A DNA stretch of 64,000 nt from Alphaproteobacteria bacterium. Lineage in GTDB: Bacteria; Pseudomonadota; Alphaproteobacteria; JBKEAR01. Of this stretch, positions 8,890 through 38,640 are shown piece after piece (position 1 is the stretch's first letter; each line of letters opens with the position of its first letter). The DNA lies in assembly GCA_047972425.1 (NCBI GenBank), contig JBKEAR010000019.1, forward strand, positions 1,298 through 65,297, given 5' to 3'. The translations under genes were made by a program, and so were the position numbers. Under the pieces are notes generated by a model, which searched no databases, was not told the origin of the DNA, and was given only the letters and a program-made list of their open reading frames with translations.

Positions 8890-9219
8890 TATTCAATTAC
8901 AACCTAACCAATGAATTTTGGTTATAATATATTATCATTTTATATCTATAAATCTTTTTTGTAAGGGGCTGTGTCCCTTAGAACCCCCCACATTTGACTG
9001 TGCAAATGAAAGCTGCTTCGCATCTTTATAGTGTAACCAATTTTAATTGGTTACACTATAGTCTATACATAATAAAATGATTATATAAACATCAGTAGTA
9101 ATTTGATGCTAAGGGGTTTGCAACCCCTTAATAATCCCCGCACACAGCTACGCTGTGGGCAACCTCAAAGCATTAGGTAATACTAAAATTTATTATCATT
9201 TTAAGTAGTATTACCTATA
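8890..9219. repeat. composite hairpin-rich dispersed repeat (sub-elements X, palindrome P, E2, E3), copy 1
   Basis: About 85-100% identical to 38281-38640 (X segment inverted relative to that copy), and the E3 part to 23385-23469. Contains palindromes tagtgtaaccaattttaattggttacacta, aaggggctgtgtccctt, and the long hairpin taggtaatact...agtattaccta whose TAG is the uxaC stop codon. Confidence 0.7.
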
Positions 9220-10633
9220 TATTTATCCGATACGCCTTTTTTGCTAAATCGTTGGTTAGTTGTTTAGCCAAAATATGGGCTTGCTCGATACCTAAGCGTT
9301 TTTCGGCCACTAAGGTGGCTAAAAAGCGGGCATCAATGCGCCTTGCAACATCGTGGCGCGCCGGTATCGATAAAAATGCCCGAGTATCGTCATTAAAGCC
9401 GGCCGTATTATAAAAACCCGCTGTTTCTGTAACATATTGGCGATAGCGCAACATACCCTCGGGGCTATCAAAAAACCACCAAGCCGGGCCTAATGTTAAG
9501 GCAGGGTAATGGCCGGCCAAAGGTGCAAGCTCGCGGGAATAATTGTCTTCATCTAAAGTAAACATAATTAAGCGAAAACGTGGGTCGTTACCAAATTTAT
9601 TGAGTATGGGCTTAAGGGCATGGGTGAACTCGCAATTCATAGGGATATCAGCCCCTTTATCGGCACCAAAATTATTAAAGATAGCATCGTTATGGTTGCG
9701 ATATGCCCCGGGGTGGAGCTGCATGACAAGCCCGTCATCAAGGCTCATTTCGGCCATTTTCATCAGCATGTGGCCGCGAAAGACCTCGCAATCTTTGGCG
9801 GTAACATTATCGTTATTGATAATTCGATTATATAAAGCTTCGGCCTCGGCAGGGGTTAAATCGATGGTAAATGCCGATGGAAAACCATGGTCCGATGCGG
9901 TGGCATTGCCAACCTCTTTAAAATAAGCGCGGCGATTTTGAAGGGCTTTAATATAACCCTTATAAGATAATGTATCCTCGCCAGTAATCTCCCCTAATTT
10001 TTGAATATGGGTTAAAAAGTTCGGAAATTCCGGATTGGTTACATTATCGGGGCGGAAGGTCGTGACAATTTTTGTTTTTAAATTGAGCGTATTAATCTTC
10101 TGATGCGCTTTTAAAGGGTCAAGCGGGTCTTCAGTTGTGGCAATAAACTTAATATTAAAACGGTCAAGCAGATGATGGATTTTATATTCATCGGTTTTCA
10201 GCGCAGCATCAATTTTATCGTAATATGCACTTGCATTATTGCCTGAAAGGCGTTGGTCAAAACCAAAAACTTCCGAAAATACGGTATCCAACCACATTTG
10301 CGAAGGTGTGCCCGCATAAAGATAATAATTATTGGCAAAAATATCCCATATTTTCCGGTTATCATGCTCTTTGGCGCTGCCATCGGCAAAGGGCACACCC
10401 AACTCTTCTAAAGTAATGCCTTGCGAGTACATCATGCGGTGCACATAATGGTCGGGCTTTATAAATAAAGATGCCGGGTCTGGAAAGTTGATATTATCGG
10501 CATACCATGTAGGGTCCGTATGGCCATGGGGGCTGATAATTGGTAAATCTTTAATTTCATTATAAATTTCTTTGGCTATGGATTTTTGTTCCTTATCCGA
10601 AGAAAAAAGACGATCCTCATGTAAATAACTCAT
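9215..10633 (-). CDS. uxaC: glucuronate isomerase (uronate isomerase)
   Basis: 472 aa; N-terminus ISPHGHTDP and overall similarity to UxaC. Confidence 0.9.
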   Translation of the reverse strand: MSYLHEDRLFSSDKEQKSIAKEIYNEIKDLPIISPHGHTDPTWYADNINFPDPASLFIKPDHYVHRMMYSQGITLEELGVPFADGSAKEHDNRKIWDIFANNYYLYAGTPSQMWLDTVFSEVFGFDQRLSGNNASAYYDKIDAALKTDEYKIHHLLDRFNIKFIATTEDPLDPLKAHQKINTLNLKTKIVTTFRPDNVTNPEFPNFLTHIQKLGEITGEDTLSYKGYIKALQNRRAYFKEVGNATASDHGFPSAFTIDLTPAEAEALYNRIINNDNVTAKDCEVFRGHMLMKMAEMSLDDGLVMQLHPGAYRNHNDAIFNNFGADKGADIPMNCEFTHALKPILNKFGNDPRFRLIMFTLDEDNYSRELAPLAGHYPALTLGPAWWFFDSPEGMLRYRQYVTETAGFYNTAGFNDDTRAFLSIPARHDVARRIDARFLATLVAEKRLGIEQAHILAKQLTNDLAKKAYRINI

Positions 10634-10651
10634 TGTTTCCTCCTTTATTTT

Positions 10652-11980
10652 CTAACCCATCATACCAAATAATCGGGGTAGCGCAAGCGATATAGCAGGT
10701 ATATAAGTCACTAATAATAACGCAACAACCAATACGGCATAAAATGGTAAAAGCTTCGGTATAACTTCATCTAAGCGCACTTTAGCAATAGAGCTACCAA
10801 TGAATAACGCACTCCCCACAGGTGGGGTACAAATACCAATACACAAGTTAAAGGTAATGAATACACCAAAATGTACGGGGTCCATGCCTAAATCTTGGGC
10901 AATGGGTAAAAATATGGGGGTAAAGATGAGCAATGCCGGTGTCATATCCATAAATGTGCCCACAAGTAATAATACAAAGGTAATGATGAGCAGAAGCACA
11001 TATTTATTTTCGGAGAGTGATGTTAAAGAATTGGCGATAATGAATGGAATGTCGGTCATCACCATGGCAAATTGCATGCCCATAGATGTACCAATAAGCA
11101 AGAGTACAATCGAGGTGGTAATGACGGATTCTAAAATAATTTTGGGCAAATCGCCTATGCGTATTTCTTTATAAACAAAAGATAAAAACAAGGCATAAAC
11201 CACGGCGGCGGCCGAGGCCTCGGTGGGTGTAACCTTACCCGTAATAATACCGCCCATAACCAATACAATAAGCAGTAAAGAGGGGATAGCGCGGATAGTA
11301 TATTGAATAGCCGCATTAAAAGTGACTTTTTCCGCAATTGGGTAATTATGGCGCACCGCGTAAATACCGGCAACCAACATAAGGCCTAAGCCCATGATAA
11401 TACCCGGTAAATAGCCGGCCAAAAATAATGCCCCAACCGATGTACCGCCCGAAACAAGCGAGTAAACAATAAATGTGTTTGATGGCGGAATAAGCAACCC
11501 TGTTGGGCAAGATGAAATATTGACTGCGGCCGAAAATGCAGGCTCGTAACCCTCCTTTTTTTGCAAGGGTGCCATAACCCCGCCAACGGCTGCGGCCGAT
11601 GCAACGGCCGAGCCCGAAATAGCACCAAAAAGCATATTAGATGCAATATTACAATGGGCAAGGCTACCGGGCATACGGCCAACCAAAACTTTAGCAAAGT
11701 CGATAAGGCGGGTGGCAATACCGCCGCTATTCATTATATTACCCGCCAATATAAAAAACGGTATGGCTAAAAGCGGAAAACTATCTAAGCCTGATGCCAT
11801 GCGTTGGGCTAAGGTAAAGGTACTTTCATCTAACGCCACCGGAAGTGGTGTACCAAATACCATATTCGCCGCAACTAAAGCGATAACCGAGGATAAACCA
11901 ATAGCAAACGAAATGGGCACACCCAAGGCCAAAAATATGGCAAAGCTACCGAATAAAGCGATAATTCCAATCCATTCCAT
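10652..11980 (-). CDS. TRAP transporter large permease (DctM family)
   Basis: 442 aa polytopic membrane protein, DctM-like. Confidence 0.85.
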   Translation of the reverse strand: MEWIGIIALFGSFAIFLALGVPISFAIGLSSVIALVAANMVFGTPLPVALDESTFTLAQRMASGLDSFPLLAIPFFILAGNIMNSGGIATRLIDFAKVLVGRMPGSLAHCNIASNMLFGAISGSAVASAAAVGGVMAPLQKKEGYEPAFSAAVNISSCPTGLLIPPSNTFIVYSLVSGGTSVGALFLAGYLPGIIMGLGLMLVAGIYAVRHNYPIAEKVTFNAAIQYTIRAIPSLLLIVLVMGGIITGKVTPTEASAAAVVYALFLSFVYKEIRIGDLPKIILESVITTSIVLLLIGTSMGMQFAMVMTDIPFIIANSLTSLSENKYVLLLIITFVLLLVGTFMDMTPALLIFTPIFLPIAQDLGMDPVHFGVFITFNLCIGICTPPVGSALFIGSSIAKVRLDEVIPKLLPFYAVLVVALLLVTYIPAISLALPRLFGMMG

Positions 11981-12444
11981 TAGGCTTCTCCTCTAAAAAA
12001 CTCGATATATTGGCAAATGAGGTAAAAAATCATAAACCCGCCGCTTACCGGGATGGATAAATATATAAAACCCATTGGCACGCCCAATACCGGTGAAATT
12101 TGTTGCGATGCTAAAGTATCTGATACCAAAGTGATACCGCCCAACATCATGACAAGTAAAACAAAAATAAGGCTTAAAGTTAAAATGATAAACTGAAGGT
12201 GCTTTTTGTTTTTTCCGTGGAGTTTTTGTAACAGTAAATCAAGAGCCAAATGGCGCTTTTGCCCTAATGTATAGGCAGCTCCAATCAGCCCTGTCCACAT
12301 AAATAAAAACCGTGCAAGCTCATCGGTAAATGTACTGCTTATGCCAATCCAACGGGCTAAAACCTGCCAAATTACACAAATGACCAAAAAGCTCATAATA
12401 AAGATACACAGGCTTGCTAATATTTTATTGACCCATTTTTCCAT
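11980..12444 (-). CDS. TRAP transporter small permease (DctQ family)
   Basis: 154 aa, 4 TM, stop overlaps dctM start. Confidence 0.8.
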   Translation of the reverse strand: MEKWVNKILASLCIFIMSFLVICVIWQVLARWIGISSTFTDELARFLFMWTGLIGAAYTLGQKRHLALDLLLQKLHGKNKKHLQFIILTLSLIFVLLVMMLGGITLVSDTLASQQISPVLGVPMGFIYLSIPVSGGFMIFYLICQYIEFFRGEA

Positions 12445-12601
12445 GCTTCCTACCCTTTACATACAAGTATTCGTACAATAAAAGACCAATTTAAATAAAT
12501 TGTCAACCAAAATAAGAAAATTATTGACAAGTTTTAACGTTTCAGTCAATCTCTATGATAAGGTTTCACATGTTAATCAGTTTATCAAGGGAGATATTCT
12601 T

Positions 12602-13585
12602 ATGAAAATTCATAACCAAATACTTTTAGGTGCAAGTGTTTTAGCCATGGTTTCGGTAACGGCATCGGCTAAAACTTATAATTTGAAATTAAGCCATAAC
12701 CAAGGTGTTGACCACCCGGTTCACCAATCCATGGAATTTTTGGCGGAGCGTGCCAAAGAGCTTTCGAACGGCGAAATTAATGTGCGAGTTTACCCCAATG
12801 CACAGCTTGGCACACAAAGAGAATCGGTAGAGCTGATGCAAAAAGGCGTAATTGCCATGGCAAAATCGAATGCCAGTGAAATGGAGGCCTTTGAGCCTGC
12901 TTATGGTGCATTTAACGTACCTTATATCTTTCGCGATCGCGACCATTATTACCGCGCAATGACCGGCCAAGTGGGCGAGGATATCTTAGCGGCATCGGCC
13001 GATAAAGGATTTATTGGTTTAACTTATTACGATGCCGGTGCCCGTAGCTTTTATGCCAATAAAGCGATTAATTCACCTGCTGATTTAAAAGGAATGAAAA
13101 TTCGGGTGCAACCGAGCCCTACAGCCATTGCAATGATTGAAGCGATGGGTGGCAACCCAACACCGCTGGCATATGGCGAGCTTTATACCGCCTTACAACA
13201 AGGTGTGGTTGATGGTGCAGAAAATAACCCGACGGCCTTAACCCAATCGCGCCATGGCGAGGTTGCTAAAGTATTTTCGATGGACGAACATACGATGATT
13301 CCCGATGTATTGCTCATTAGCAAAAAACAATGGGATCAGCTTGGTGAAGAAAATCAAAAATTACTCAAACAAGCCGCTAATGAATCCATGATGTATCACA
13401 AAGATTTATGGACAAAAATTATTGCAGAAGATATAGAAAAAGCCAAAACAGAAATGGGTGTTGAATTTGTAGAAGTTGAAAAACAGCCTTTTATTGATGC
13501 GGTTAAACATATGCATGAAGATGCCTTGGCTAATCCGGCTATTCAAACTTATGTTGAGGGTATTATTGCTTTAGATCAGCAATAA
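12602..13585 (+). CDS. TRAP transporter substrate-binding protein (DctP family), probably hexuronate-binding
   Basis: Start moved to MKIHNQILLGASVLAMVSVTASA (signal peptide, SD gggag 8 nt upstream); DctP-family sequence; divergent from dctQM-uxaC. Confidence 0.85.
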   Translation: MKIHNQILLGASVLAMVSVTASAKTYNLKLSHNQGVDHPVHQSMEFLAERAKELSNGEINVRVYPNAQLGTQRESVELMQKGVIAMAKSNASEMEAFEPAYGAFNVPYIFRDRDHYYRAMTGQVGEDILAASADKGFIGLTYYDAGARSFYANKAINSPADLKGMKIRVQPSPTAIAMIEAMGGNPTPLAYGELYTALQQGVVDGAENNPTALTQSRHGEVAKVFSMDEHTMIPDVLLISKKQWDQLGEENQKLLKQAANESMMYHKDLWTKIIAEDIEKAKTEMGVEFVEVEKQPFIDAVKHMHEDALANPAIQTYVEGIIALDQQ

Positions 13586-13666
13586 ATTATAACAAAACAA
13601 AAGTCTATCTAAATAGCCCACAGCTTTAAAAGAAGGCTTTGGGCTATTTTTATAAAGGAATATAAA

Positions 13667-15445
13667 ATGGCTGAAGATGTCTATTTTCACCTCCATGACG
13701 AAGATTATGATTATGCTTATATGCAAAATCTTTTTACAGCGGATGATTTTATTTTTTCGCGGTACAGAAAATCGGTAAGTTTAAATGGTGCATGGAATTT
13801 TACCGTTGATTTGCACGATGAAGGTTTAAGGCAAAAATGGTATAATTATCACCCGTGTGCGCCAAAAGATTGGCCAGACCCCAGAGATTACGACCCTTAT
13901 ATGGGCGAGCAAATTATGGTGCCATCGGTATGGAATTTTTATCAGGAAAAACTCTATTATTTCGAGGGTAGTGCTTGGTATACCAAAATTATTCAAACAA
14001 AAGATATTCCATTTAGCACAAATTATATTTTACGCATTGGCGCAGCAGCAAATGAGGCTTTTGTTTTTATTAACGGGCAAATACAAGGTTTTCATAAAGG
14101 AGCCTCTACACCGTTTTTTTGTGATATAACCGAGTTTATGAAATCGGATGAAATACGCATACAGATTGTTGTACGAAATATGCGCCGCCGTCAAGATGTA
14201 CCAATGAACCATACAGATTGGTTTAATTATGGTGGTATTCATCGTGATGCGGATATTTTGCTTTTACCTGCCGCTTTTATTAAAAATTATTTTTTACATT
14301 TAAATAAAGATAGCCAATCAGCAACCATTAAGGTACAAACCAATGATTTGCTTGATGGTATTGCCCATTTAAATATTGATGAATTGGGTTGCTCTATCCC
14401 AATACCGATAAAACAGGGGCAAGGTGAAGTGCAATTTGATATAAATGCCCAAAAATGGTCGCCCAAAAATCCGAAATTATATGAAATATCTATTGAATAT
14501 AAAGATGATAAAATAAGTGATAAAGTGGGCTTTCGCACCATAGAGGCTAAAGGATGCGATATTTTACTCAATGGAGAGAAAATCTTTTTAAAAGGTATTT
14601 CTGTTCATGAAGATGATGAAAAATTAGGGCGTGTGAGTACAATTGAGGATATTAAGCGCCGGATTAGTCATGCCAAAGAGCTGGGTTGTAACTTTTTACG
14701 TTTGGCCCATTATCCCCATAATGAATTAGCAGCCGAATTATGCGATGCTGCCGGTTTGATGGTATGGGAGGAAATTCCGGTTTACTGGGCGATTGCCTTT
14801 GATAATGCCGATACGCTAAAAAATGCGCAAAATCAATTAAGAGAGCTGATTATACGCGACCAAAACCGTGCGAGTGTGATTATGTGGTCGGTGGGCAATG
14901 AAAATGCCGATACCGATTTACGGCTAAATTTCATGCGTCAGTTGGCCGAAACTGCTAAAAAACTAGATGATACACGTTTAGTTACAGCTGCATGTTTAGT
15001 GAATTTTGATGAACTCAAAATACAAGATCGTTTGAGTGAATATCTCGATGTCATTGGTTTAAATGAATATTATGGTTGGTATATCCCGACCTATGATGAT
15101 TTAATTACCATTGGTAAAAATTCTAAACCCGGTAAACCAGTCATTATTTCCGAAACAGGGGCGGGGGCAATATTAGGCAAAGATGCCCCCAAACAAGGTT
15201 GGTTTAGCGATGATTATATGGCCGAGGTTTATAAAAACCAAACAGCTATTATTCCTTCGGTGCCGGGTATTTGTGGGATGACACCTTGGATTTTATACGA
15301 TTTTCGGGCAGCGAGGCGGCAGAATATTTATCAAAAAGATTTTAATCGTAAAGGGCTTATCACCCAAGATAAAACAACAAAAAAACAGGCTTTTGATATA
15401 TTGGCCAATTTTTATAAAAATTTAGATAACAAACATAGTAAATAA
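13667..15445 (+). CDS. uidA: beta-glucuronidase (GH2)
   Basis: 592 aa; aligns with E. coli GUS motifs (FNYGGIHR, LAHYPH, MWSVGNE catalytic acid, NEYYGWY, ISETG nucleophile). Confidence 0.8.
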   Translation: MAEDVYFHLHDEDYDYAYMQNLFTADDFIFSRYRKSVSLNGAWNFTVDLHDEGLRQKWYNYHPCAPKDWPDPRDYDPYMGEQIMVPSVWNFYQEKLYYFEGSAWYTKIIQTKDIPFSTNYILRIGAAANEAFVFINGQIQGFHKGASTPFFCDITEFMKSDEIRIQIVVRNMRRRQDVPMNHTDWFNYGGIHRDADILLLPAAFIKNYFLHLNKDSQSATIKVQTNDLLDGIAHLNIDELGCSIPIPIKQGQGEVQFDINAQKWSPKNPKLYEISIEYKDDKISDKVGFRTIEAKGCDILLNGEKIFLKGISVHEDDEKLGRVSTIEDIKRRISHAKELGCNFLRLAHYPHNELAAELCDAAGLMVWEEIPVYWAIAFDNADTLKNAQNQLRELIIRDQNRASVIMWSVGNENADTDLRLNFMRQLAETAKKLDDTRLVTAACLVNFDELKIQDRLSEYLDVIGLNEYYGWYIPTYDDLITIGKNSKPGKPVIISETGAGAILGKDAPKQGWFSDDYMAEVYKNQTAIIPSVPGICGMTPWILYDFRAARRQNIYQKDFNRKGLITQDKTTKKQAFDILANFYKNLDNKHSK

Positions 15446-15502
15446 ATTGGTTAATCAGTTATGGCGGTATAATAAAACCAATATAGAAGAAAGGGGAATA
15501 AA

Positions 15503-16684
15503 ATGAAGCAATCGTGGCGCTGGTTTGGTAAGGATGATCCGGTAACATTACAAAAAATTAAACAAGCAGGTGCAACCGATGTTGTTTATGCACTATACCA
15601 TATTCCGGTGGGTAAGGTATGGCCCTATGAAGAAATTAAGGCAATGAAAGACGAAATTGAGGCTCAGGGTCTTGTTTGGTCGGTGGTAGAAAGCTTAGCC
15701 GTGCATCAGGATATTCGCCTAAAAACAGGCAATTACAAGCAATATCTCGAAAATTATAAGCAGTCGCTTAAAAACTTAGCCAAAGCAGATATCCGGATTA
15801 TTTGTTACAACTTTATGCCCGTATTGGATTGGACCCGCACCGAGCTTAAATGGGAAGATAGCGATGGCAGCAAAGCCCTACGCTTTGATAATGATATTTG
15901 GGCGGCTTTTGATATTTTTATTTTAGAGCGCAAAAATGCCAAGGCAGATTATGATGCTGCCACGATTAAACGGGCAGAGAAACATGCTAAGCAAATGAGC
16001 GATGCCGATAAAGCCCATTTATTACAAACAGTTGCCGCCGGTTTGCCGGGGGCAAATGAAGAGGGGCATGATCTCAATAGTCTTCGCTTAGCACTTTCGG
16101 CCTATGACAATATATCAGCCGATGAGTTACGAGATAATTTATCGGATTTCATTAACGAGATTATACCCCTGTGCGAGCAAGAAAATATGTTAATGGCCAT
16201 GCACCCCGATGATCCACCGCGCTCTATTTTGGGCTTGCCACGCATATTCAGTACAGCGGATGATGTGCGCAAACTTTTTGCCATGAATAAAAGCAAAAGT
16301 AACGGGCTAACTTTATGTGCGGGCTCTTTTGGTGTGCGTGCAGATAACGATTTAACCCAAATGGCTTATGAATTTGCCGATCGCATTCACTTTGTTCATT
16401 TACGCTCCACTTTGCGCGATAAAGATAACCAAAATTCCTTTATTGAAGCCAATCATTTAGCGGGCGATGTGGATATGTTTAGTCTTTGTAAAGCCCTTAC
16501 CGAGGTAGAAAAACAACGCAGAGATGATGGTGAAAGCACATTAGAAATTCCGTTTCGGCCAGACCACGGCCGGCTATTAGATGGCGATGACGAAAAAAAT
16601 CCGGGATATTCATGGATAGGCCGGCTTAAAGGCCTTGCAGAATTAAGAGGATTACTTTATGCTATCAACCGAGTTTATCCATAA
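15503..16684 (+). CDS. uxuA: mannonate dehydratase
   Basis: 393 aa; MKQSWRWFGKDDPVTL...ATDVV matches the UxuA N-terminus. Confidence 0.9.
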   Translation: MKQSWRWFGKDDPVTLQKIKQAGATDVVYALYHIPVGKVWPYEEIKAMKDEIEAQGLVWSVVESLAVHQDIRLKTGNYKQYLENYKQSLKNLAKADIRIICYNFMPVLDWTRTELKWEDSDGSKALRFDNDIWAAFDIFILERKNAKADYDAATIKRAEKHAKQMSDADKAHLLQTVAAGLPGANEEGHDLNSLRLALSAYDNISADELRDNLSDFINEIIPLCEQENMLMAMHPDDPPRSILGLPRIFSTADDVRKLFAMNKSKSNGLTLCAGSFGVRADNDLTQMAYEFADRIHFVHLRSTLRDKDNQNSFIEANHLAGDVDMFSLCKALTEVEKQRRDDGESTLEIPFRPDHGRLLDGDDEKNPGYSWIGRLKGLAELRGLLYAINRVYP

Positions 16685-16696
16685 GGGGAGGATAAT

Positions 16697-18175
16697 ATGC
16701 AATTAAATCAACAGAGTTTAAATCAATTACCGTCCGAAATCATTCGGCCAAACGATAATGTTAACCAAGCAAAAATTGGTATTTTACATTTGGGTTTAGG
16801 TAACTTTTATCGGGCGCATCAATGTGCATTTACCCAGCATTGCGTTGCGCAAACAGGCGATGATTGGGCTTATGTTGCCGCAACAATGTCTTCGCCACGG
16901 GTGATAAACGCCTTAAAAGAACAAGATTTTCTTTATACACATATCGCCCATAGCAGCAAGCAAACCAAAGCCGAGATTATTCATATTATTAAAGATGCCG
17001 TTTTAGTTAAAAATGAAATTGAGCGCTTTTTTGATTATATTCAAGATGAAAATATTGTGATTGTTAGCCTAACCATTACCGAAAAAGGCTATTATTACGA
17101 AGGCGCAACGGGGGATTTACAGGTTGATCACCCTGATATTCAGGCGGATTTAAAAAATGATAAACAACCCAAAACTGCTATTGGTGCCCTTGTTTTAGGG
17201 TTACAAAAACGCAAAGAATCCTTAGGCAAAGGGTTAACGATTTTAAGCTGCGATAATTTACCCAATAATGGCGAGGTTACCCAAAAAGTTATCTTGCAAT
17301 ATGCGGCACAAATTGATGCGGGTTTAAAAGATTGGATTAGCCAAAATGTTACCTTCCCCAGTTCTATGGTGGATCGCATTACGCCACATGTAACCGATAA
17401 TGACTTAAAATGGGTAGAAGAAACCTATGGTTATTCCGATGCTATCCCCATACAAACCGAAGATTTTAGCCAATGGGTAATAGAAGATAATTTTATTTAT
17501 GGTCGACCCAAATGGGAAATTGCCGGTGCCGAAATGGTAGCTGATGTTAGTGCGTTTGAGGATATGAAGCTTCGGCTATTAAATGGCACACATTCTACAA
17601 TGGCCTATTTGGGATATTTGGCTGGCTTTAGAGTGATTGACGCCGTGATAGATAATGCTGTTTTTGCGCAATTTATTCGCGATATGATGGATAATGAAAT
17701 TACACCCACCTTAAATATGCCCGAAAATGTGGATGTAACCGCCTATAAAGATGCACTTATTCAGCGCTATAAAAACCCCAATTTAAAACATTCTACTTAT
17801 CAAATTGCCATGGATGGTTCGCAAAAGATTCCACAGCGCATTATGAATACGCTCAAACATCAATATCAAACCCAAGGGGATTATGAGCGTTTAATTACGG
17901 CTTTAGCTGGTTGGATATATTATATTGAGGCTACAGCTAACCCGAATGCAGCTTATGAAGTGCAAGACCCGATGAAAGATGAATTTAGCCGCCTTGCCGG
18001 AGTATCGGGTAGCGATGCCGAATTTGTCCGCAATATTTTATCGATACAAAAAATCTTTGGTGATTATTTTACCCAACATGCGGATTTAATGGAAAAAATT
18101 ACTTTGCGCCACCAAGCTTTAAAAGATCAGGGCGTTTTAACTGTTTTGCAAGAGATTAATATAGGAGAAAATTAA
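16697..18175 (+). CDS. uxuB: fructuronate reductase / D-mannonate oxidoreductase (mannitol dehydrogenase family)
   Basis: 492 aa mannitol-DH family; sits between uxuA and kdgK. Confidence 0.8.
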   Translation: MQLNQQSLNQLPSEIIRPNDNVNQAKIGILHLGLGNFYRAHQCAFTQHCVAQTGDDWAYVAATMSSPRVINALKEQDFLYTHIAHSSKQTKAEIIHIIKDAVLVKNEIERFFDYIQDENIVIVSLTITEKGYYYEGATGDLQVDHPDIQADLKNDKQPKTAIGALVLGLQKRKESLGKGLTILSCDNLPNNGEVTQKVILQYAAQIDAGLKDWISQNVTFPSSMVDRITPHVTDNDLKWVEETYGYSDAIPIQTEDFSQWVIEDNFIYGRPKWEIAGAEMVADVSAFEDMKLRLLNGTHSTMAYLGYLAGFRVIDAVIDNAVFAQFIRDMMDNEITPTLNMPENVDVTAYKDALIQRYKNPNLKHSTYQIAMDGSQKIPQRIMNTLKHQYQTQGDYERLITALAGWIYYIEATANPNAAYEVQDPMKDEFSRLAGVSGSDAEFVRNILSIQKIFGDYFTQHADLMEKITLRHQALKDQGVLTVLQEINIGEN

Positions 18176-18177
18176 TA

Positions 18178-19089: not shown

Positions 19090-19711
19090 TGTTAATGCAA
19101 TTTTATTAAAAGCCAAAGAGCTCGTGCCCGTTGTGGTGATAGACGATGCCAAAGATGCCGTGCCGCTTAGCCAAGCGATTACCAAGGCCGGCGGCAAATT
19201 TATCGAGATTACCTTGCGCACAGCTGCAGCGGTTGATGCTATTAAAAATATTAAACAACAAAACCCCGATATCATTGTGGGTGCAGGTACGGTATTATCT
19301 GTTGCCGATGCCCAAAAAGCGATTGATGCCGGTGCCGATTTTTTGGTTTCTCCGGGTTTTGATAAAGAGGTTGTGCTTTATGCACAAAAACAAAATAAGC
19401 TGATGATCCCCGGCACAATTACGCCTTCAGAGGTTCAACAAGCCATGGGCTTGGGCTTAAATTTGCTAAAATTCTTTCCGGCGCAAAATGCCGGCGGGGC
19501 AGCCATGATTAAAGCTTTTGGCAGCGTTTACCCGCATGTGATGTTTATGCCTACCGGTGGTATTAATTTACAAAATATCGGTGAATATATTGCTTGTGCA
19601 AATATCGGTTGCATTGGCGGTAGTTGGGTATGTACTAAAGAGGATATCGCCCAAGGCAAATTTGCCGATATTACCCAAAAACTGGCCGAGGCCAACCGCT
19701 TATTTAATTAG
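19079..19711 (+). CDS. eda: KDPG / KHG aldolase
   Basis: 210 aa; Eda family (EITLRT, GAGTV, FFPA); overlaps the kdgK end. Confidence 0.85.
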   Translation: MPNNVNAILLKAKELVPVVVIDDAKDAVPLSQAITKAGGKFIEITLRTAAAVDAIKNIKQQNPDIIVGAGTVLSVADAQKAIDAGADFLVSPGFDKEVVLYAQKQNKLMIPGTITPSEVQQAMGLGLNLLKFFPAQNAGGAAMIKAFGSVYPHVMFMPTGGINLQNIGEYIACANIGCIGGSWVCTKEDIAQGKFADITQKLAEANRLFN

Positions 19712-21444: not shown

Positions 21445-21500
21445 GAACAATATATAAACTTTTTATTTAAAAGTAATAATTTAATTATCAGGAGATTAAA

Positions 21501-23105: not shown

Positions 23106-23384
23106 TATGACCTCCAAATATAAATTGTAAACATTATTAAGGTAAGCATAATCAGGGATAAGTCAACGTTTTTTGTACAGGTTCCGCCTGTTTGAATTCA
23201 CTAACTTTGTTAGAACGACTTTACATGCGCCAGACTTCGTCTGTTTGAATTTATGCACGCTGCATTGAGTAGCTTTCACTATATTTATCTGTCATTACCA
23301 GCTTGACTGGCAATCTGTTTACAATAAAAGCATTTGGGATAAGATGCCCAATCAAGTTGGGCATGACGACAACACAATAATAAT

Positions 23385-23469
23385 CCCTGCACACAGCTAC
23401 GCTGTGGGCAACTTCGTTGCATTAGGTAATACTAAAATTTATTATCATTTTAAGTAGTATTACCTATAT
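23385..23469. repeat. E3 repeat sub-element, copy 3 (variant)
   Basis: ccctgcacacagctacgctgtgggcaacttcgttgcattaggtaatactaaaatttattatcattttaagtagtattaccta; same as 9137-9219 and 38557-38638 apart from a 7-nt central variant. Confidence 0.6.
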
Positions 23470-27754: not shown

Positions 27755-27843
27755 ATATAAAACTCCTAAAAGAGATATTAAGGGACTGTTTAAACATGTT
27801 TTAGCTTGTGCAGCCCCTTATTGATCCTGATATTTCCCAAATA

Positions 27844-30800: not shown

Positions 30801-32016
30801 CGGGGCGCATAACACGGTAAATATCAATTAAGGCTTCCTCGCGGTTGGTGTTGCGGTCTACCATTAATGTATTACGTATCCAAGGGCCTTTGGTATGACC
30901 ATCGATATCCAAAATAGAAATCTCTTTCACTTTGGCTTCTTTAATAGCAGCCAAAAAGCCTTCATCAATCTCGGCACCGGCTTCACCAAAAATTTCACCG
31001 GTTTCGCCGTTAAAATGGTCAACCGCTAAATAACGGCCAATAAGCTCATTTTCTTTAAGCAAATAATGGGTGAATTTATCTTCCTTAAGCTGTTTGGCAA
31101 GGCGCGGGGTAATTTTACGCCCAGCTTTTACAACAACTTCGCCTGTTTTGGGGTCGGTTAAATCGTTATAAGCAATGGTGCCAATAGATTGATCAATATC
31201 AAAAGCCACTTTCCATCCACCGCGGGTGGTGGTAACTTTTTGGGTATGGTAAAAAATGCTTAAAATTTCTTCGGCACTCATACCTTCTACTTCCGAAGCA
31301 TCAAGCTCTACACCTTTTTTGGCGGCATCAATACGGGCTTTTTCGGTTTCGGCCGAGTCAAGCGCCATTAACATGGTGGTTAAGGGGAGCTTACGGCGGC
31401 GGTCGATACGCACATGCATAATATCTTTCGGGTCAAACTCAAAATCCAACCAGCTACCGCGGTAAGGGATAACACGGGCAGCAAATAAAAACTTACCCGA
31501 TGTATGGGTGCGCCCGCCATCATGGTCAAAAAACACGCCGGGTGAGCGGTGGGTTTGCGATACAATCACACGCTCAGTACCATTAATGATAAAAGTACCA
31601 TTTTCGGTCATTAGCGGCATATCGCCAATAAAAACCTCTTGCTCTTTAATATCACGAACAGAGCGCATGCCACTATCTTCATCGATATCCCAAACCACAA
31701 GGCGCAAAGTAGAGCGCAAAGGGGCCGACCATGTTGCACCGCGCTGGGTACATTCTTCTTGGTCATATTTGGGTTCTTCAAATTCGTATTTAATATATTC
31801 GAGCGTTGCGGTTTCGGCATAATCATTTACCGGAAAAACCGAGGCAAAAGCACCCTCTAAACCGGTATCGGTTCTATCTTGGGATTTCACTTCTCTTTGT
31901 AAAAATTGCTCATAAGAATTACGTTGGACTTCAATTAAGTTCGGCATATTCACAGCAGCCGGAATACGGCCATAAGAGCGACGAATACGACGACGTTCCG
32001 TAAAGGATCGAGACAT
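27844..32016 (-). CDS. rpoB: DNA-directed RNA polymerase subunit beta
   Basis: About 1390 aa from the ATG at 32016 ([16 protein letters not shown]; the track start at 32025 is GTG); full-length RpoB similarity. Confidence 0.97.
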
Positions 32017-32322
32017 TATCAACACCTATATTTCATTAATGACACTTTCGTTAATTAAATAACGAACCAAAACCCCAAAGGCGGGAGCTAAATCCGCAAT
32101 GTCCCCCATTGCAGTTTAACCGGGGCCGGGTGCCGCAGGTTATTTTGTCTTTTCGGTCGGGGAACCCATCGGAACAAAATAACGGCATAAAAACGACAAA
32201 AAAACCAGCTTTCGGGCTATCCAAAAACTGCGCTTATAGAATCATTTCAAATTACTTAGTTAATATGGCATATTATGGGGGGGGGTGTCAATGTTTTTTA
32301 TGTATGGGGCTTTGCCCGTCAT

Positions 32323-32374
32323 GCTGAAAGCATGCCTAATATATAGTTGCTGAAAGCATGCCTAATATATAGTT
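32323..32374. repeat. 26-nt tandem direct repeat x2 (gctgaaagcatgcctaatatatagtt)
   Basis: Two perfect adjacent units inside the repeat-rich rpoB upstream region. Confidence 0.6.
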
Positions 32375-32556
32375 GGCTTGTCTCCGACAAGACCCCCCAC
32401 AATGCAAGCGTTGACCTGAAGGGAAAACCCATTGGTTTTCCTATGCTTTATTCTGTAACACTTAGTAGTCATTCCTGCTTTCGCAGGAGTGGCGGGGTAT
32501 TTATACAAAGGAAAAACCCATTCGGTTTTTCTGTGTTATATTCTGTTGCATCTTCA

Positions 32557-33378
32557 TTATGTACCATACCAATAATTGGCGGTAACGCCGCCATCGATGA
32601 GGAAGTCGGAGCCGGTGATAAAAGTACCGTCTTGCCCCATAATAAGGGCGGCGAGGGCGGCAATTTCATCGGAGGTACCCGCACGTTTTGCCGGGCAGGT
32701 TTCTATCATTTGCCGGTAACCCGCACCCCGTGGCCCGTTCAGTTCATCATTCGCCAAAGGCGTTATAACGATTCCCGGGCTAATACTGTTAACCCTTGCA
32801 CCACGTTTTCCCCATTTTACCGCTTGAGCCATAACACGCAATGCATTGCCCCGTTTAGAAAGCTGATAAGCATGGAGTGTATCTTTAATTGCATCCGCAC
32901 TTAACATCGGCAGATCCAAAAGGGCTTCGGTTGGGGTGGTGGCCAATGCTGTATCTTGCTCGGCCGATAAGGCCGCTAAACGATGCCCCGAGTGCGATGC
33001 AATCACCAGCGCCGAGCCACCGGGGGCAATCACTGTGCCGAATTCTTCTAATATCATCGCCGTACCATACTAATCGACCTGTCATAGGGTTTCTATCGGC
33101 GCTTGGGAAGGTGTTACGCCGGCAGCATGGATAAGCCCTGTAATATCCCCAATTTTTTGGGCTTGGGTTATCAGCGCTAAAACAGAAGTGCGCGATGATA
33201 CATCAACCGTTGCCGCATGGGTTGTGTAGCCTGCATTATAAAGAGTTTGAGCGGCATCTTGCGCATTTTTCGGGTTAATATCGGCAAAAATAATATGCTT
33301 GCCTACACCCACGCGCCGAGCAATAGCTTGGCCGATAAAACCAGAGCCGACAACGGTAATTACTTGATTTTGTTTCAT
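32557..33378 (-). pseudogene. SDR-family oxidoreductase disrupted by two in-frame stop codons
   Basis: The N-terminal ORF (33082..33378, Rossmann VVGSGFIGQAI) and the C-terminal ORF (32557..33057) are in the same frame. They are separated by TGA (33082-33084) and TAG four codons later. Combined length of 274 codons equals a normal SDR. Confidence 0.6.
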
Positions 33379-33390
33379 AATTCTCTCCTT

Positions 33391-33984
33391 TTATAAATGA
33401 TGAACACCTAAGCTTTGTTGAATGCCAAAATTGGGGGTCGTTGCAAGCTTAACGATGAGATCGGCCACGCTTTTACGCGATACGGTGGCATTAGCATTTT
33501 TAAAAGGCTCGTTCCTTTGGGTTGTGCCATAGTGAATTTCATCATTGTCATTGAGCCATTCGGGGCGAATGATAGTATAATCCAAGCCCGATTGCTCAAT
33601 AAGCGCGGCAGAGTCCCGATAAGGGTTTAAAACTGGGTTATAATTTTGCCCCGGTATTTCGCCGTAAATACCCATAGAGCTAATGAAGATAAGCCGGCGG
33701 ATATCATGGTTGTTCATGGCGGCGATAATGGCCTGTGCTTGCGCTTTCATATCGCCCGATAGATTGGCATATACAACATCTTGCCCAATCATCGCTTGGC
33801 TTAACTTATTTGTATCGGTTGCATCGCCTTCTATAATCGTAATACGGTTGTTATCTTTTCGTTGTTGTAGCCGTTTGGCATGGCGTAAATACAGGGTTAA
33901 ATGGGCATCGGTACGCTCTAAAAATAGGTCTGTGGCATATTGCGCAATTTGGCCGTAAGCCCCTATAATTAAAATATTCTTCAT
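33391..33984 (-). CDS. NAD(P)-binding atypical SDR / NmrA-like oxidoreductase
   Basis: 197 aa; N-terminal IIGAYGQIAQ Rossmann motif. Confidence 0.7.
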   Translation of the reverse strand: MKNILIIGAYGQIAQYATDLFLERTDAHLTLYLRHAKRLQQRKDNNRITIIEGDATDTNKLSQAMIGQDVVYANLSGDMKAQAQAIIAAMNNHDIRRLIFISSMGIYGEIPGQNYNPVLNPYRDSAALIEQSGLDYTIIRPEWLNDNDEIHYGTTQRNEPFKNANATVSRKSVADLIVKLATTPNFGIQQSLGVHHL

Positions 33985-34105
33985 GTTACCTCTTTGAAAT
34001 TTATAGTAAAAGTAATTTTTGTTTCGATAATATTAAAATAGGCTTTATACGTAGTTTTGTCTTGCCTAATACTCTAAAATAGTTACCTATTCGGCCAAAA
34101 ATGCA

Positions 34106-34747
34106 CTAGCTTTCATCGAGCAATGCCATATACTCTGCCCTTGGGATCTCACGGCCGCCAAATTGGGCAATAACCGATGTTGTCATTTGGGTGTCTACCC
34201 ATGTAAGCCCCTGTTTCTTGAGATGTTTAATCATCTCTACCAAAGCCAATTTCGATGCATTGCTGCGCTTCATAAACATGCTCTCACCCGAAAAATGGCC
34301 ATTAACTTGCACCCCATAGAGGCCGCCGATAAGCGCATTGCCTTCCCAAACCTCACAAGATTGCCCATAACCTTGCTCGTATAATCGGGTATAACCGCGG
34401 ATCATTGCGCGGGTAATCCATGTGCCGTCTTGCCCTGCCCGCGGGGCTTTGGCGCATTCGACCATAACCTCGGTAAATGCCTGATTAAACGTGACTTTAT
34501 AAGGATGTTTTTTATACCAGCTTTGGAAACGCCGGGGCAAATGAAGCTCCTTAAAGAACAGCACACCGCGCATGGGCGGGGCAAACCATAATAGGGGTTC
34601 GCCTTCGCCAATCGGCCAAGGGAAGATGCCATTTGCATAAGCATCGAGCAAGAGATCGGTCTCAAAATAACCACCCATGGCTAATACGCCATCGCTATCG
34701 GCCTCATTGACATCGGGGAAGTATAAACTCATGCGGTTTTTGTCCAT
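34106..34747 (-). CDS. aat: leucyl/phenylalanyl-tRNA--protein transferase
   Basis: 213 aa; similarity to E. coli Aat (GIFPWP, LWFAP). Confidence 0.85.
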   Translation of the reverse strand: MDKNRMSLYFPDVNEADSDGVLAMGGYFETDLLLDAYANGIFPWPIGEGEPLLWFAPPMRGVLFFKELHLPRRFQSWYKKHPYKVTFNQAFTEVMVECAKAPRAGQDGTWITRAMIRGYTRLYEQGYGQSCEVWEGNALIGGLYGVQVNGHFSGESMFMKRSNASKLALVEMIKHLKKQGLTWVDTQMTTSVIAQFGGREIPRAEYMALLDES

Positions 34748-34905
34748 TTATATCCATTAATAAACATGTTTATTCTGATTATACGCCATCTATTTTGATT
34801 AAAAAACCGATATTTTATGATTATATTTATGGTTTGATAGGCCGCTTAAAAGGGTGAATAGGGCAAATATCGGATATAAATGGATATATTTGGCAGCGAT
34901 TTACC

Positions 34906-34936
34906 CTTGACGAAACAATGGGTGCCGACCTATCTT
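34906..34936 (+). promoter_or_regulatory. alphaproteobacterial RpoH (sigma32)-type promoter CTTGAC-N17-CCTATCTT upstream of hsp20
   Basis: Matches the alpha-proteobacterial sigma32 consensus CTTG-N17/18-CYTATNT; located about 30 nt upstream of the hsp20 ATG. Confidence 0.45.
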
Positions 34937-34966
34937 AAATGCATAAAAATATAATGGGATAATAAA

Positions 34967-35377
34967 ATGACACGCGCACCATTTAATAACTCGCTGATGT
35001 TAGGCTTTGAGCATATGGAAAGACTGTTGGACAGAGCTAATCGGAGCTCCGATGGCTATCCGCCTTATAATATTGAGCATTTATCCCAAGATAAATTCCG
35101 TATCACCATTGCGGTTGCCGGCTTTACCATGGATAACCTTAATGTGAATATCGAGGATAATCAGTTGGTTATCAAAGGCCAACAGGTCGATGACGGCTTA
35201 GAGCGTGTATATATTCACCGGGGCATTGCAGCGCGCCAATTCCAAAAGGCCTTTGTTTTGGCCGAGGGTGTAGAGGTGGAGCGCGCTTGGTTAGAAAACG
35301 GTTTGCTTAATATCGATCTCACCCATATCCGCCCCGAGCCAACCATTCGTAAAATTAATATTGAATTTACAGATTAA
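34967..35377 (+). CDS. Hsp20/alpha-crystallin family small heat-shock protein (IbpA-like)
   Basis: 136 aa; alpha-crystallin domain. Confidence 0.85.
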   Translation: MTRAPFNNSLMLGFEHMERLLDRANRSSDGYPPYNIEHLSQDKFRITIAVAGFTMDNLNVNIEDNQLVIKGQQVDDGLERVYIHRGIAARQFQKAFVLAEGVEVERAWLENGLLNIDLTHIRPEPTIRKINIEFTD

Positions 35378-35490
35378 TTATTATATTTCGGTATTTTATG
35401 ATTTGTATCAAATTTTCTTGAATATCTTATTAATCAAAAACTAAATACCATATACATATTAAGAAACAACTTTAAGGAAAGTTTTTTAAT

Positions 35491-35751
35491 ATGGTCCGCC
35501 CTTCTGAATGCGCAACCCCTTGGAAAGACATGGCAACCGAGCTTGCCAATGCGGGTAATTTAAGCCATAACGACTTTGCAGCACTTGGCATGGCGAAAAT
35601 TGTTTATTTAAAATTAGTCGGCACGCCAGATGCACCCTATGATTTCCAAATATTTTCGGCCAATGGGCAAATGATGTATGAAACCAAAGATATTGATTTA
35701 CTGCTCGATTGGATGTTGGTTCAAGATGTTATACCGGTAGCGTTGCATTAA
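35491..35751 (+). CDS. small conserved hypothetical protein (DUF1150-like) often paired with hsp20 in alphaproteobacteria
   Basis: 86 aa; family assignment is from memory only. Confidence 0.45.
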   Translation: MVRPSECATPWKDMATELANAGNLSHNDFAALGMAKIVYLKLVGTPDAPYDFQIFSANGQMMYETKDIDLLLDWMLVQDVIPVALH

Positions 35752-35867
35752 TTATCCCCTATTGGGGGTGGTGTAAATATTGTTAAACCCTAATGAAAGC
35801 TAAGGCTTTATCATCACAAATTCTTATGCTATATTGAATAAAATTTATCAAATATTAGGGGAATAAA

Positions 35868-36518
35868 ATGAAGCGTTACGCAGAATTTAGAAATTTAATC
35901 GAGGTTGATCATCCACTCATTGCCGACCGTTTAACCCGCCTACGGGAAGAAAAAACGGGCACGGCATCTTTTCGCAATATCTTATCGCATATCTCGCTAT
36001 TATTAAGCTATGCGGTAACATCGGAGCTTAAGCCTTCTACCCGCAAAATCCAAACCCCCATTTGCGAAATGGAAGCCCCTTGTTTGGGCGAGCCAATGCC
36101 CTCGATTATTCCGGTATTGCGTGCCGGTTTGGGGTTCTCTGATAGTTTAATGCAGCTCATGCCCGAGGCCTCGGTGGGGCATATTGGTGTTATGCGGAAT
36201 GAGACAACCCATCGCCCCGAGGAATATTTGGTGCGCCTACCTAAAGATATCGGGCAACGTTATATTTTGACCGACCCCATGTTGGCCACCGGCTATTCGG
36301 CTGCCCATGCCATTGATGTGTTGAATGAAAACGGCATTGAAGATGAGCGGATTATTATGATGTCGCTCGTTGCTGCGCCCGAAGGGGTTAAGGTAATGCA
36401 AGATAAACACCCGAAAGTGCTTATTTATACCGCCGCACTCGATGACCATTTAAACGAAAACGCCTATATTGTGCCCGGCCTTGGCGATGCGGGTGATCGT
36501 TTATTCGGTACGGTTTAA
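35868..36518 (+). CDS. upp: uracil phosphoribosyltransferase
   Basis: 216 aa; aligns with E. coli Upp (ILRAGLG, DPMLATG, YIVPGLGDAGDRLFGT). Confidence 0.9.
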   Translation: MKRYAEFRNLIEVDHPLIADRLTRLREEKTGTASFRNILSHISLLLSYAVTSELKPSTRKIQTPICEMEAPCLGEPMPSIIPVLRAGLGFSDSLMQLMPEASVGHIGVMRNETTHRPEEYLVRLPKDIGQRYILTDPMLATGYSAAHAIDVLNENGIEDERIIMMSLVAAPEGVKVMQDKHPKVLIYTAALDDHLNENAYIVPGLGDAGDRLFGTV

Positions 36519-36673
36519 CCTGCTACAAACGCGTTTATTATAGCCAAAATATAGGCTTATCATCTTGAAAAAGGGAGCATTTCGCTGCCTTTTTTATATT
36601 GTATAAACAATTGACGCAATATGACACCTATGATTTATTAAACCTTAGGTTATGTTGATAAAGGAGAAAGAAA

Positions 36674-38218
36674 ATGCGGATAGAAGGTGGATTATTATTG
36701 GCAACCATGCTTATGGCTTTGTCGGCAGGGGCAGATGAATGTGCCGATTTAAGCCAAACACAGCTCCCCAATGTGCAAATAAATGCAGCCAGTTTACAAG
36801 CCGAGCAAATTTTACAGCCCGATGCCAATAGCGGGCTTACAGGCAGCGGCGTTACAGAAAACACCATTGGCGCCCATTGTTTAGTTGAGGGCAAAATAGA
36901 AGATCGCCAAGGGGTGAATGGTCAATATGGTATTCGCTTTCAGCTCCGTTTACCCACCACATGGAATGGCCGATTAATGTTCCAAGGGGGTGGCGGTATG
37001 GACGGCTTTATTGCGCCGGCTATTGGTGCAGTCCCTAGTAATGGTTCATCGGCTGTGCCATCGTTAAGCCGGGGTTATGCGGTGGTGAGTATGGACGGCG
37101 GCCATGATGGGCACGATGCCGAATTTGCCTATGACCAACAAGCAAGGCTCGATTTAGCCTATGCCTCCATTGGCAAAGTAACCCATGTGGCCAAAGCCTT
37201 AATTGATAGTTATTATGACCAAGCTTTAGAACATTCCTTTTTTATGGGTTGTTCCAATGGTGGGCGTGAAGCCATGATGGCGGCACAGCGTTTTCCGTTA
37301 GAGTTTGATGGCATTGTGGCCGGTAACCCGGGGTTTCATTTATCGGCAGCCGCTATTGCCCAAGCTTGGGATGTTAAGCAATTGATGGGCATTGCACCTA
37401 ATGGTGTATTGTCGCAAGCGTTAACCCAAGCGGATTTAGATGCGGTATCCCAAGAAATTTTAAAGGCTTGCGATGCCAATGATGGCATAACAGATGGTAT
37501 TGTGGCCACCCCAAGCCAATGTAATATCACTTTAGATGATATGCCAAATATCTTAACAGAAGAAAAAATGGCGGCATTAAAAGCCGTTATGGCCGGGCCC
37601 CATAATAGCCTAGGTAATGCTTTATATAGCGATTGGCCGTTGGACCCAGCTATCAATACAGCCGGTTGGCGGTTATGGAAATTGGGATTTTCCGAAACAG
37701 AACAACCCGATGCTTTAAATGTATTGATTGGTCGGGAGTCTTTACCCAAATTATTTATAACGCCCCCCCTTGCCGAATTGCCGCAAAATATCAACTTCGA
37801 TACCATTTCGGCACAGGTTGCCGAGATTGGTGCATTAAATGATGCCACATCCACTTATCTTTCCACTTTTGCTTATAATGGTGGGAAAATGGTGATTTTC
37901 CATGGCATGGCCGACCCTGTATTTTCGGCCAATGATATTACCAAATGGTACGAAAAAGCGACCAGCAATACAAAAGATGATTTTGCGCAATTATATTTAG
38001 TACCCGGCCTTACCCATTGCGGTGGTGGCCAAGCTTTTGATGACTTTGACCCGCTGACTATTTTAGAAAATTGGGTGATTAACGGAGAAAAAGTCACACA
38101 AATGCCGGCAAAAAGTACGGTATTTAAGGGTAAATCCATGCCCATATGTGCTTACCCGCAAGAGGCCTATTATACAGGCGATGACCCCAATGATATAGCC
38201 AGTTATAGCTGTAAATAA
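36674..38218 (+). CDS. tannase/feruloyl-esterase family secreted alpha/beta-hydrolase
   Basis: 514 aa with signal peptide; GCSNGG nucleophile motif typical of the tannase/feruloyl esterase family. Confidence 0.75.
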   Translation: MRIEGGLLLATMLMALSAGADECADLSQTQLPNVQINAASLQAEQILQPDANSGLTGSGVTENTIGAHCLVEGKIEDRQGVNGQYGIRFQLRLPTTWNGRLMFQGGGGMDGFIAPAIGAVPSNGSSAVPSLSRGYAVVSMDGGHDGHDAEFAYDQQARLDLAYASIGKVTHVAKALIDSYYDQALEHSFFMGCSNGGREAMMAAQRFPLEFDGIVAGNPGFHLSAAAIAQAWDVKQLMGIAPNGVLSQALTQADLDAVSQEILKACDANDGITDGIVATPSQCNITLDDMPNILTEEKMAALKAVMAGPHNSLGNALYSDWPLDPAINTAGWRLWKLGFSETEQPDALNVLIGRESLPKLFITPPLAELPQNINFDTISAQVAEIGALNDATSTYLSTFAYNGGKMVIFHGMADPVFSANDITKWYEKATSNTKDDFAQLYLVPGLTHCGGGQAFDDFDPLTILENWVINGEKVTQMPAKSTVFKGKSMPICAYPQEAYYTGDDPNDIASYSCK

Positions 38219-38221
38219 AAA

Positions 38222-38244
38222 GAAGCCTTCGGGCTTCTTTTTTT
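38222..38244 (+). terminator. rho-independent terminator after the tannase-like gene
   Basis: gaagcc-ttcg-ggcttc followed by a T7 run. Confidence 0.7.
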
Positions 38245-38280
38245 GACACAATTCCATACCATCATATAGGCAAATATGAT

Positions 38281-38640
38281 TTATAGTGTAACCAATCAAA
38301 TTTGGTTACACTATAAAGATGCAAAGCAGCTTTCATTTGCAAAGCAAATGGAGGGGGTGTTAAGGGGCACAGCCCCTTACAAAAAAACTTGCAGATATAA
38401 AATGATAATATTTTTATCCAAAATTCATTGGTTATAGTCTATACATAATAAAATGATTATATAAACATCAGTAATAATTTGATGCTAAGGGGTTTGCAAC
38501 CCGTAAAGCCGAAGGCTTTCTAAAAAAAGATAACTTGTCTCCGACAAGATATAATTCCCGCACACAGCTACGCTGTGGGCAACCTCAAAGCATTAGGTAA
38601 TACTAAAATTTATTATCATTTTAAGTAGTATTACCTATAG
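38281..38640. repeat. composite hairpin-rich dispersed repeat, copy 2 (P-X'-E2-insert-E3)
   Basis: Direct copies of E2 and E3 from 9061-9219; the X segment is inverted relative to copy 1; carries an extra cttgtctccgacaag palindrome (38534-38548). Confidence 0.7.

Follow-up and report, generated by a model that had tools for sequence, protein, structure and literature searches.

Two hairpin-rich repeat clusters in a 64,000-nt stretch of alphaproteobacterial DNA, one downstream of rpsO and one downstream of a tannase-like gene, raise the question of what kind of element they represent, and why a segment found in both should stand in opposite orientations. The stretch, referred to here as the window, comes from a contig of a metagenome-assembled genome (MAG; Alphaproteobacteria bacterium, GCA_047972425.1, contig JBKEAR010000019.1). 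An original prediction made from the letters alone described the clusters as two copies of one composite element, bracketing a 29.5-kb block and differing by the inversion of an inner segment across a palindrome. Our analysis points to a different answer. Each composite contains two distinct elements lying end to end, which we call X and E23, and both are probably non-autonomous elements resembling miniature inverted-repeat transposable elements (MITEs) that are mobilised in trans. NusA homologues place the source in a small MAG-only clade (97%, 89%, 82% and 77% identity), with Rhodospirillales and Magnetospirillum next at ~65% identity. The window was compared with Logan short-read contigs of the same strain (99.7-99.9%), with a sister species at ~87-91% nucleotide identity, and with more distant relatives.

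The repeats and their identities were confirmed by direct reading, a repeat finder and self-blastn. In self-blastn, segment E2 at 9057-9126 matches 38433-38502 with 98.6% identity, and segment E3 at 9131-9219 matches 38551-38639 with 98.9% and a further stretch at 23380-23468 with 93-94%. The modules recur as predicted, and the second cluster holds ~50 extra nt between E2 and E3, at 38503-38553. We read E2 and E3 together as one element, E23, of ~163 nt with imperfect terminal inverted repeats (TIRs) of ~32 bp. When the opening 32 nt of E2 are set, without gaps, against the reverse complement of the closing 32 nt of E3, 22 of 32 positions agree, beginning with TATAG, a match equalled in 4 of 20,000 shuffles. 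Seven copies of the 12-mer TAAAATGATWAT are present in the window, where 0.18 would be expected. All of them are inside X, E2 or E3, and in E23 the 12-mer sits 16 nt from either end in inverted orientation. E23-1 occupies 9057-9219 on the plus strand (163 nt; E2 at 9057-9130, E3 at 9131-9219), with hairpins at 9111-9129, 9140-9160 and 9174-9217. E23-2, also on the plus strand, spans 38433-38639 (E2 at 38433-38502, E3 at 38551-38639), with the extra nucleotides nested between its halves.

The third E3, at 23380-23468 on the plus strand, stands alone ~50 nt past the rpoC terminator. It had been noticed originally together with a 7-nt variant, and it carries four substitutions within a 7-nt stretch plus one C>T. 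It amounts to the right half of E23, with E2 and the left TIR both missing, and would be a left-truncated E23 derivative. The surrounding DNA also contains hairpins of the repetitive extragenic palindrome (REP) type, at 23284-23368 and 40558-40628, tagged with CGTC or TGTC and made of an 8-bp stem starting AT and a CTTGA loop. Strict matches fall at 23290 (plus), 23368 (minus) and 40563 (plus), and the first two are paired head to head in a REPIN-like dimer that closely precedes the solo E3.

The remainder of each composite is X. By the repeat finder and self-blastn of the window, X1 at 8905-9060 is the reverse complement of X2 at 38282-38434, with 89.1% identity over 156 columns. The opposite orientation reported for a ~130-nt segment is therefore correct, and the unit concerned is longer, ~156 nt including the terminal palindromes P and P'. 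X1 (~8903-9060, minus strand, nhmmer E = 3e-53) is MITE-like in form, with P' at 8905-8924, P at 9027-9060 and internal hairpins between them, including a variable central hairpin at 8963-8979. X2 (38282 to ~38436, plus strand, 89% identical to X1) has P at 38282-38315 and P' at 38415-38434. Both ends of X are the palindrome TAACCAAT..TTGGTTA, and P and P' are related. The core TAACCAA-N6-TTGGTTA is present four times in X and elsewhere in the window once, with one mismatch. The palindrome is not a perfect one of 30 nt, as had been stated: in copy 1, arms of 13-15 nt surround the non-palindromic spacer TTTA, and copy 2 is likewise imperfect, with a spacer of ~4-6 nt (TCAAAT with 14-nt arms). 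As terminal inverted repeats of X, the shared cores require a 5-nt indel to align, and the ungapped shuffle test was not significant.

A third copy, X3, was found outside the window in the same strain. It forms the end of contig L033 (of the dinB-oadGAB pair L033/L034), ~75 nt past the oadB terminator. X3 is identical to the reverse complement of X1 except in the central hairpin, where AAGGGACACAGCCCCTT is exchanged for CTTGTCGGAGACAAG; the central position reads AAGGGGCACAGCCCCTT in X1 and X2 and CTTGTCGGAGACAAG in X3. The P arms are perfectly conserved across X1, X2 and X3, and the spacer is variable. For the region past X3, the znuA-to-heparinase proteins of a relative fell into 90% clusters without members from the window strain.

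How the two orientations of X arose can be judged from divergence. X1 and X2 have diverged at 17 of 156 positions (11%), ~9 times the 2 of 159 (1.3%) at which the two copies of E2 and E3 differ (Fisher p = 2.5e-4). Because X1 and X2 are so much more diverged than E2 and E3, and because X1 equals X3 outside the swapped hairpin, X and E23 have separate histories. The prediction that X, E2 and E3 were duplicated as a unit, after which X was inverted through its terminal palindromes, either once or as a recombinase-operated switch, would have X and E2-E3 equally diverged, and the unequal divergence argues against it. It could draw on the observations that X joins E2 at one and the same base of E2 in the two copies, whichever way X is turned, and that the related palindromes bounding X could act as inverted recombination sites; X also contains a weak outward promoter-like site, of a kind no commoner than in shuffles. 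Against it, the closest relative of X1 is X3, at another locus. Contigs L027 (SRR30067233) and L028 (SRR30067234) show X2 in one orientation, identical to the window, and contig L026 breaks at 8947 in a k-mer that it has in common with X3 rather than at a palindrome branch. Finally, the window and the contig annotations contain no recombinase gene nearby.

Small hairpins add a further layer. The nested insert of copy 2 (38503-38553, plus strand, ~50 nt) consists of two of them, AAAGCCGAAGGCTTT and CTTGTCTCCGACAAG, folds with z = -5.0 and breaks the 3' arm of the E2 hairpin. Further copies of CTTGTCTCCGACAAG lie on the plus strand at 32377-32391, where the flanks resemble the centre of X3 and give a weak nhmmer match at 32368-32403, and at 42448-42462, inside which the same-strain contig L015 ends. 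Likewise, the central hairpin of X3, CTTGTCGGAGACAAG, has three more copies in the window, at 32377, 38534 (inside the nested insert) and 42448, against an expectation of 0.00. Hairpin modules can be swapped or inserted inside both X and E23.

The predicted folding of the elements is strong. Against dinucleotide shuffles, both composites fold far more stably (z = -7.6 and -8.3), and the overall range, single modules included, is z = -6.6 to -8.3. Their coding capacity is negligible: X (~156 nt) and E23 (163-207 nt) hold only stop-free stretches of 20-56 aa, and a search of the concatenated six-frame peptides against 5.8 billion proteins returned no homologues. In the window and the fetched loci together, X was observed at three loci, E2 at two and E3 at three.

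The sister species shows what the insertion sites look like when empty. The rpsO-uxaC spacer measures 368 nt here and 52 nt in the sister, in which the rpsO terminator and the uxaC 3' end are kept on either side. The tannase-ankyrin spacer measures 465 nt against 97 nt, and its left junction coincides with the opening base of P. In a global comparison with the sister species the two composites are by far the largest window-specific intergenic indels, and the gene order on both sides of each is common to the two genomes. Two orthologous sites are thus filled in one relative and empty in the other. Because the sister keeps this gene order with short, element-free spacers, X and E23 at the composite sites are recent insertions relative to the sister species. 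Downstream of oadB, no X was found in the sister species; the flanks diverge there and leave no precise junction. Searches with blastn, nhmmer and an E3 covariance model (188-288 kb including the window, with overlapping loci) found no X, E2 or E3 in sister or more distant loci, and the E3 covariance model and the X and E2 nhmmer profiles found no diverged extra copies in the window or any of the loci.

At one of these sites the insertion has reached into a gene. The uxaC reading frame (9215-10633, minus strand) takes its TAG stop codon, at 9215-9217, from the 3' arm of the E3 hairpin, as was seen from the first, and the protein ends in ...AYRINI* here and in ...AYRIK* in the sister species. 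Every copy is found 20-75 nt past an intrinsic terminator, and the terminators of rpsO and the tannase gene are conserved in the sister. We considered whether the elements serve as gene terminators and rejected this, as a canonical terminator is retained ahead of the element at all four genes, rpsO, the tannase gene, rpoC and oadB. Adjoining composite 2, the ankyrin-repeat gene at 38684-39118 specifies a protein of 144 aa, against 459 aa in the sister. Two ~410-nt repeat blocks are missing, which looks like a contraction in repeat number.

The same comparison bears on the 29.5-kb block between the composites, to which the original prediction had attached significance. Both junctions exist in the sister without the elements, and the block holds rpoB and rpoC; an island or composite transposon was rejected on these grounds. 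Deleting the block between the direct repeats would be lethal, as rpoB and rpoC would go with it. The repeats were also rejected as the cause of local rearrangements, the sister having the same gene order without them. As a separate observation, the usual rpsO-pnp adjacency is kept in a more distant relative (contig L032) and split here by 39.5 kb (8847-48407), and in GCA_047973205.1 (L029) a SAM_HAT..GST block comes after rpsO in inverted orientation. Within the clade, rearrangements have broken repeatedly at the junction downstream of rpsO, a breakpoint that is older than the repeats.

Independent short-read contigs of the same strain back the flank-to-repeat junctions, with L026 reaching to 8947, L001 starting from 9194 and L027 reaching to 38460; the interiors 8948-9193 and 38461-38640 lie outside these three junction contigs. 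L026 joins the P' end of X1 to the rpsO flank, and L027 and L028 back the whole of X2 and its junction with E2. Contigs of this strain end inside modules, namely at 8947, at 9194 in E3, at 38460 in E2, at 42464 in a small hairpin and at the end of L033. This is the pattern that multi-copy k-mers give in de Bruijn assembly. For instance, the end of L033 is the exact end of a 30-mer common to L033 and window positions 8918-8947, and L026 on the rpsO side also stops at 8947; both ends fall there because X1 and X3 have this 30-mer in common.

Database searches placed the elements in no catalogued family. Rfam gave zero gathering-level matches in the window, and its sub-threshold hits were only terminator look-alikes at the rpsO terminator. 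Among GTDB species representatives, the E3 hairpin stems had one chance match, in a Dehalococcoidia MAG, and the species is evidently not represented. JGI metagenomes contained no matches for the E3 5' hairpin or the P palindrome, and neither IMG/VR nor blastn against PLSDB plasmids and INPHARED phages gave anything meaningful. The extra X outside the window, together with the lack of a match in any collection or in Rfam, bears out the suggestion of a dispersed, multi-hairpin, REP- or MITE-like family that is uncatalogued for this lineage.

Combining these observations, we propose that each composite consists of two different hairpin-rich, non-coding mobile elements, with small REP-like hairpins nested in them or placed beside them. 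A transposase encoded elsewhere in the genome would move X and E23 in trans, and insertion would probably take place at TA dinucleotides. X and E23 may prefer each other's TATA-ended termini as landing sites. Since the two ends of X look alike, E23 could have landed next to P in copy 1 and next to P' in copy 2, and this arrangement would mimic an inversion where there was none. Copies may persist just past intrinsic terminators as insertion is tolerated there. The consequences are likely incidental: an altered C-terminus and stop codon in uxaC, extra hairpins in 3' untranslated regions (UTRs), breaks in assembly and potential substrates for recombination.

Several observations weigh against this proposal. 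No transposase was seen in the window or the fetched loci. The observed copies are few (three X, two E2 and three E3), E2 is always seen together with X and E3, and the interior of composite 1 comes from the MAG assembly alone. One breakpoint, just 5' of AATCCCCGCAC, is common to the solo E3 and the nested insert of copy 2, which equally fits E3 as an independent module. TA occurs at most termini, as would be compatible with TA-targeting MITEs: on both sides of X2, on the left of X3, at the right end of all three E3 copies, and at the outer edges of composite 1 against ATTAT in the sister. In all of these the TA is not separable from the element's own sequence, so that a TA target duplication is indistinguishable from it, and the P' side of X1 is flanked by CC instead. 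To the right of composite 2, the flank cannot be aligned to the sister species and gives no defined junction.

The main rival, which we consider rather unlikely, is a mosaic of the kind formed by REPs and bacterial interspersed mosaic elements (BIMEs). Its hairpins would be copied through single-stranded DNA by a REP-associated tyrosine transposase (RAYT) or an IS200/IS605-like Y1 transposase, or spread by template switching or gene conversion between hairpins, and the clusters would resemble E. coli BIMEs and Neisseria mosaics. The genome does contain CGTC- or TGTC-tagged hairpins that fit the definition of Di Nocera et al. (2013; PMC3733652), with the head-to-head pair at 23290/23368 beside the solo E3, and the location of the elements past genes and between convergent genes is consistent with REP behaviour as described there. 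The small hairpins inserted or swapped in X and E23 would also follow from such a single-strand mechanism, as would E3 alone, which has no TIR and a hairpin near each end. However, measured against that definition, GTAG and CGTC tags are missing from all hairpins of X, E2 and E3. At 155-165 nt and with terminal inverted repeats, X and E23 are MITE-like in form, whereas a REP has 20-40 nt. REP and BIME families are marked by over 100 copies per genome and an associated RAYT gene. The contig annotations of the window and the fetched loci list neither a RAYT gene nor a recombinase.

It is improbable, in our view, that the repeats are functional host sequences recruited at several loci, such as a small RNA, a 3'-UTR stabiliser or binding sites for a DNA-binding protein. 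The very stable folding would suit such a role, as would the presence of TAAAATGATWAT in all three module types and the perfect conservation of the 13-nt P arms in all three X copies despite variation in the spacer. On the other hand, the orthologous sister sites do without the elements while the flanking genes keep their own terminators, no Rfam family matches, and the neighbours are unrelated (rpsO and uxaC, tannase and ankyrin genes, rpoC and a SAM hydroxide adenosyltransferase gene, oadB). The conserved termini and subterminal motifs look instead like transposase binding sites.

A more elaborate possibility, for which we hold out little expectation, is a hierarchical, element-on-element system in which X is a scaffold with an internal site for hairpin cassettes, E23 targets the palindromes of X, and X is perhaps reversibly invertible. 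If true, it would mean more than a random pile-up of selfish repeats. Duplication of a whole X-E2-E3 unit followed by a flip of X is very unlikely given the divergence and contig evidence described above.

The trans-mobilised X and E23 that we favour would add uncatalogued miniature mobile elements to a MAG-only alphaproteobacterial clade, and their recent activity is apparent since the sister species lacks them at the orthologous sites examined. At uxaC, an element has rewritten the stop codon of a gene. The repeats also explain why short-read assembly breaks at these sites, and the findings remove the suggestion that the rpoBC-bearing 29.5-kb segment is a bracketed or mobile unit.

The window contains other repeats and irregularities. 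Upstream of rpoB, 32026-32556 comprises ~0.5 kb of non-coding DNA with no rplJ-rplL, dense hairpin repeats and a G-run. It includes a perfect tandem duplication of 26 nt at 32322-32373, and its rpoB-proximal portion, 32061-32190, is the only part conserved in a relative (L014). The neighbouring short-chain dehydrogenase gene (32557-33378, minus strand) has two in-frame stops in the window and is intact (273 aa) in same-strain contigs; the 11 differences, clustered at 32951-33226, could reflect a pseudogene allele, a strain mixture or an error in the MAG consensus. Intergenic repeat clusters at 40414-40915 and 42212-42837 have a 34-nt repeat in common (40735-40768 and 42255-42288, 97%) and contain TCCTGCTTTCGCAGG-type hairpins, with four copies against 0.12 expected. 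Two tandem paralogous genes for solute-binding proteins (SBP_bac_1/8) at 58976-61516 include stretches that are 72-88% identical, with a period of 1281 nt. The NMO-like and MFS genes converge on a perfect 28-nt palindrome at 52026-52053, which probably terminates transcription in both directions. Finally, a 34-nt window-specific insert (GGTTTTTGTTTTTAGTGGGTTTTT...) lies upstream of rimP at 2005-2038, and contig L026 starts at 1999, adjoining it, which suggests another multi-copy sequence.

MITEs in general, and the mosaics known as BIME, NIME and RIME, have been reviewed (Delihas, 2011; PMC3184786). Like MITEs, which are non-autonomous derivatives of DDE transposons under ~400 bp in length, X and E23 are short, encode no transposase, are dispersed and occupy sites that are filled in one relative and empty in another. 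The Correia elements of Neisseria are 100-155 bp long, have 26-bp TIRs and duplicate TA on insertion. X and E23 resemble such elements in their length of ~155-165 nt, their non-coding nature, TIRs, strong predicted folding and TA-flanked termini. They also resemble them in their intergenic position near gene ends, which they can alter, and in their presence or absence between close relatives. Unlike Correia-type elements, X and E23 show no sequence similarity to any catalogued element, were observed in a handful of copies and have an unproven TA duplication, and each terminus of X is itself a palindrome.

With BIMEs, NIMEs and RIMEs, the composites have in common that distinct hairpin modules lie side by side in a recurring order, intergenically and past genes, that modules occur in either orientation, and that small hairpins are nested and exchanged. 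Among these mosaics, the RIMEs belong to Rhizobium. BIMEs are built from 20-40-nt, GTAG-tagged REPs in alternating orientation, whereas the units here are untagged, 155-165 nt long and bounded by TIRs. In an inverton, both orientations would be present at one locus, with a recombinase nearby; X2 has a single orientation in independent samples, and the window has no recombinase gene.

Alphaproteobacterial REPs with a CGTC tag, including RPE-4 and RPE-6 of Rickettsia, are covered by Di Nocera et al. (2013; PMC3733652). They come from the same bacterial class as the window, and the hairpins at 23290/23368 and 40563 fit their definition, with the tag, an 8-bp stem starting AT, a 5-nt loop and head-to-head dimers. 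These tagged hairpins are only neighbours of our elements, the hairpins of X, E2 and E3 being untagged; the stems of the latter are ~6-15 bp, and only the E2 hairpin has an 8-bp stem with a 4-nt loop. RPEs, like X and E23, are alphaproteobacterial and palindromic, are 100-150 nt long and can overlap coding sequence, as E3 does in replacing the last uxaC codon and the stop. RPEs differ in that they typically lie in frame within genes, whereas here the overlap extends to the last two uxaC codons and the stop and the elements are otherwise intergenic; no sequence relationship was detected. X and E23 are best read as a lineage-specific, MITE- and BIME-like mosaic, an ordinary class of selfish bacterial DNA. 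Closest to them in kind are Correia elements and other bacterial MITEs flanked by TA, together with the mosaic clusters represented by BIME, NIME and RIME.

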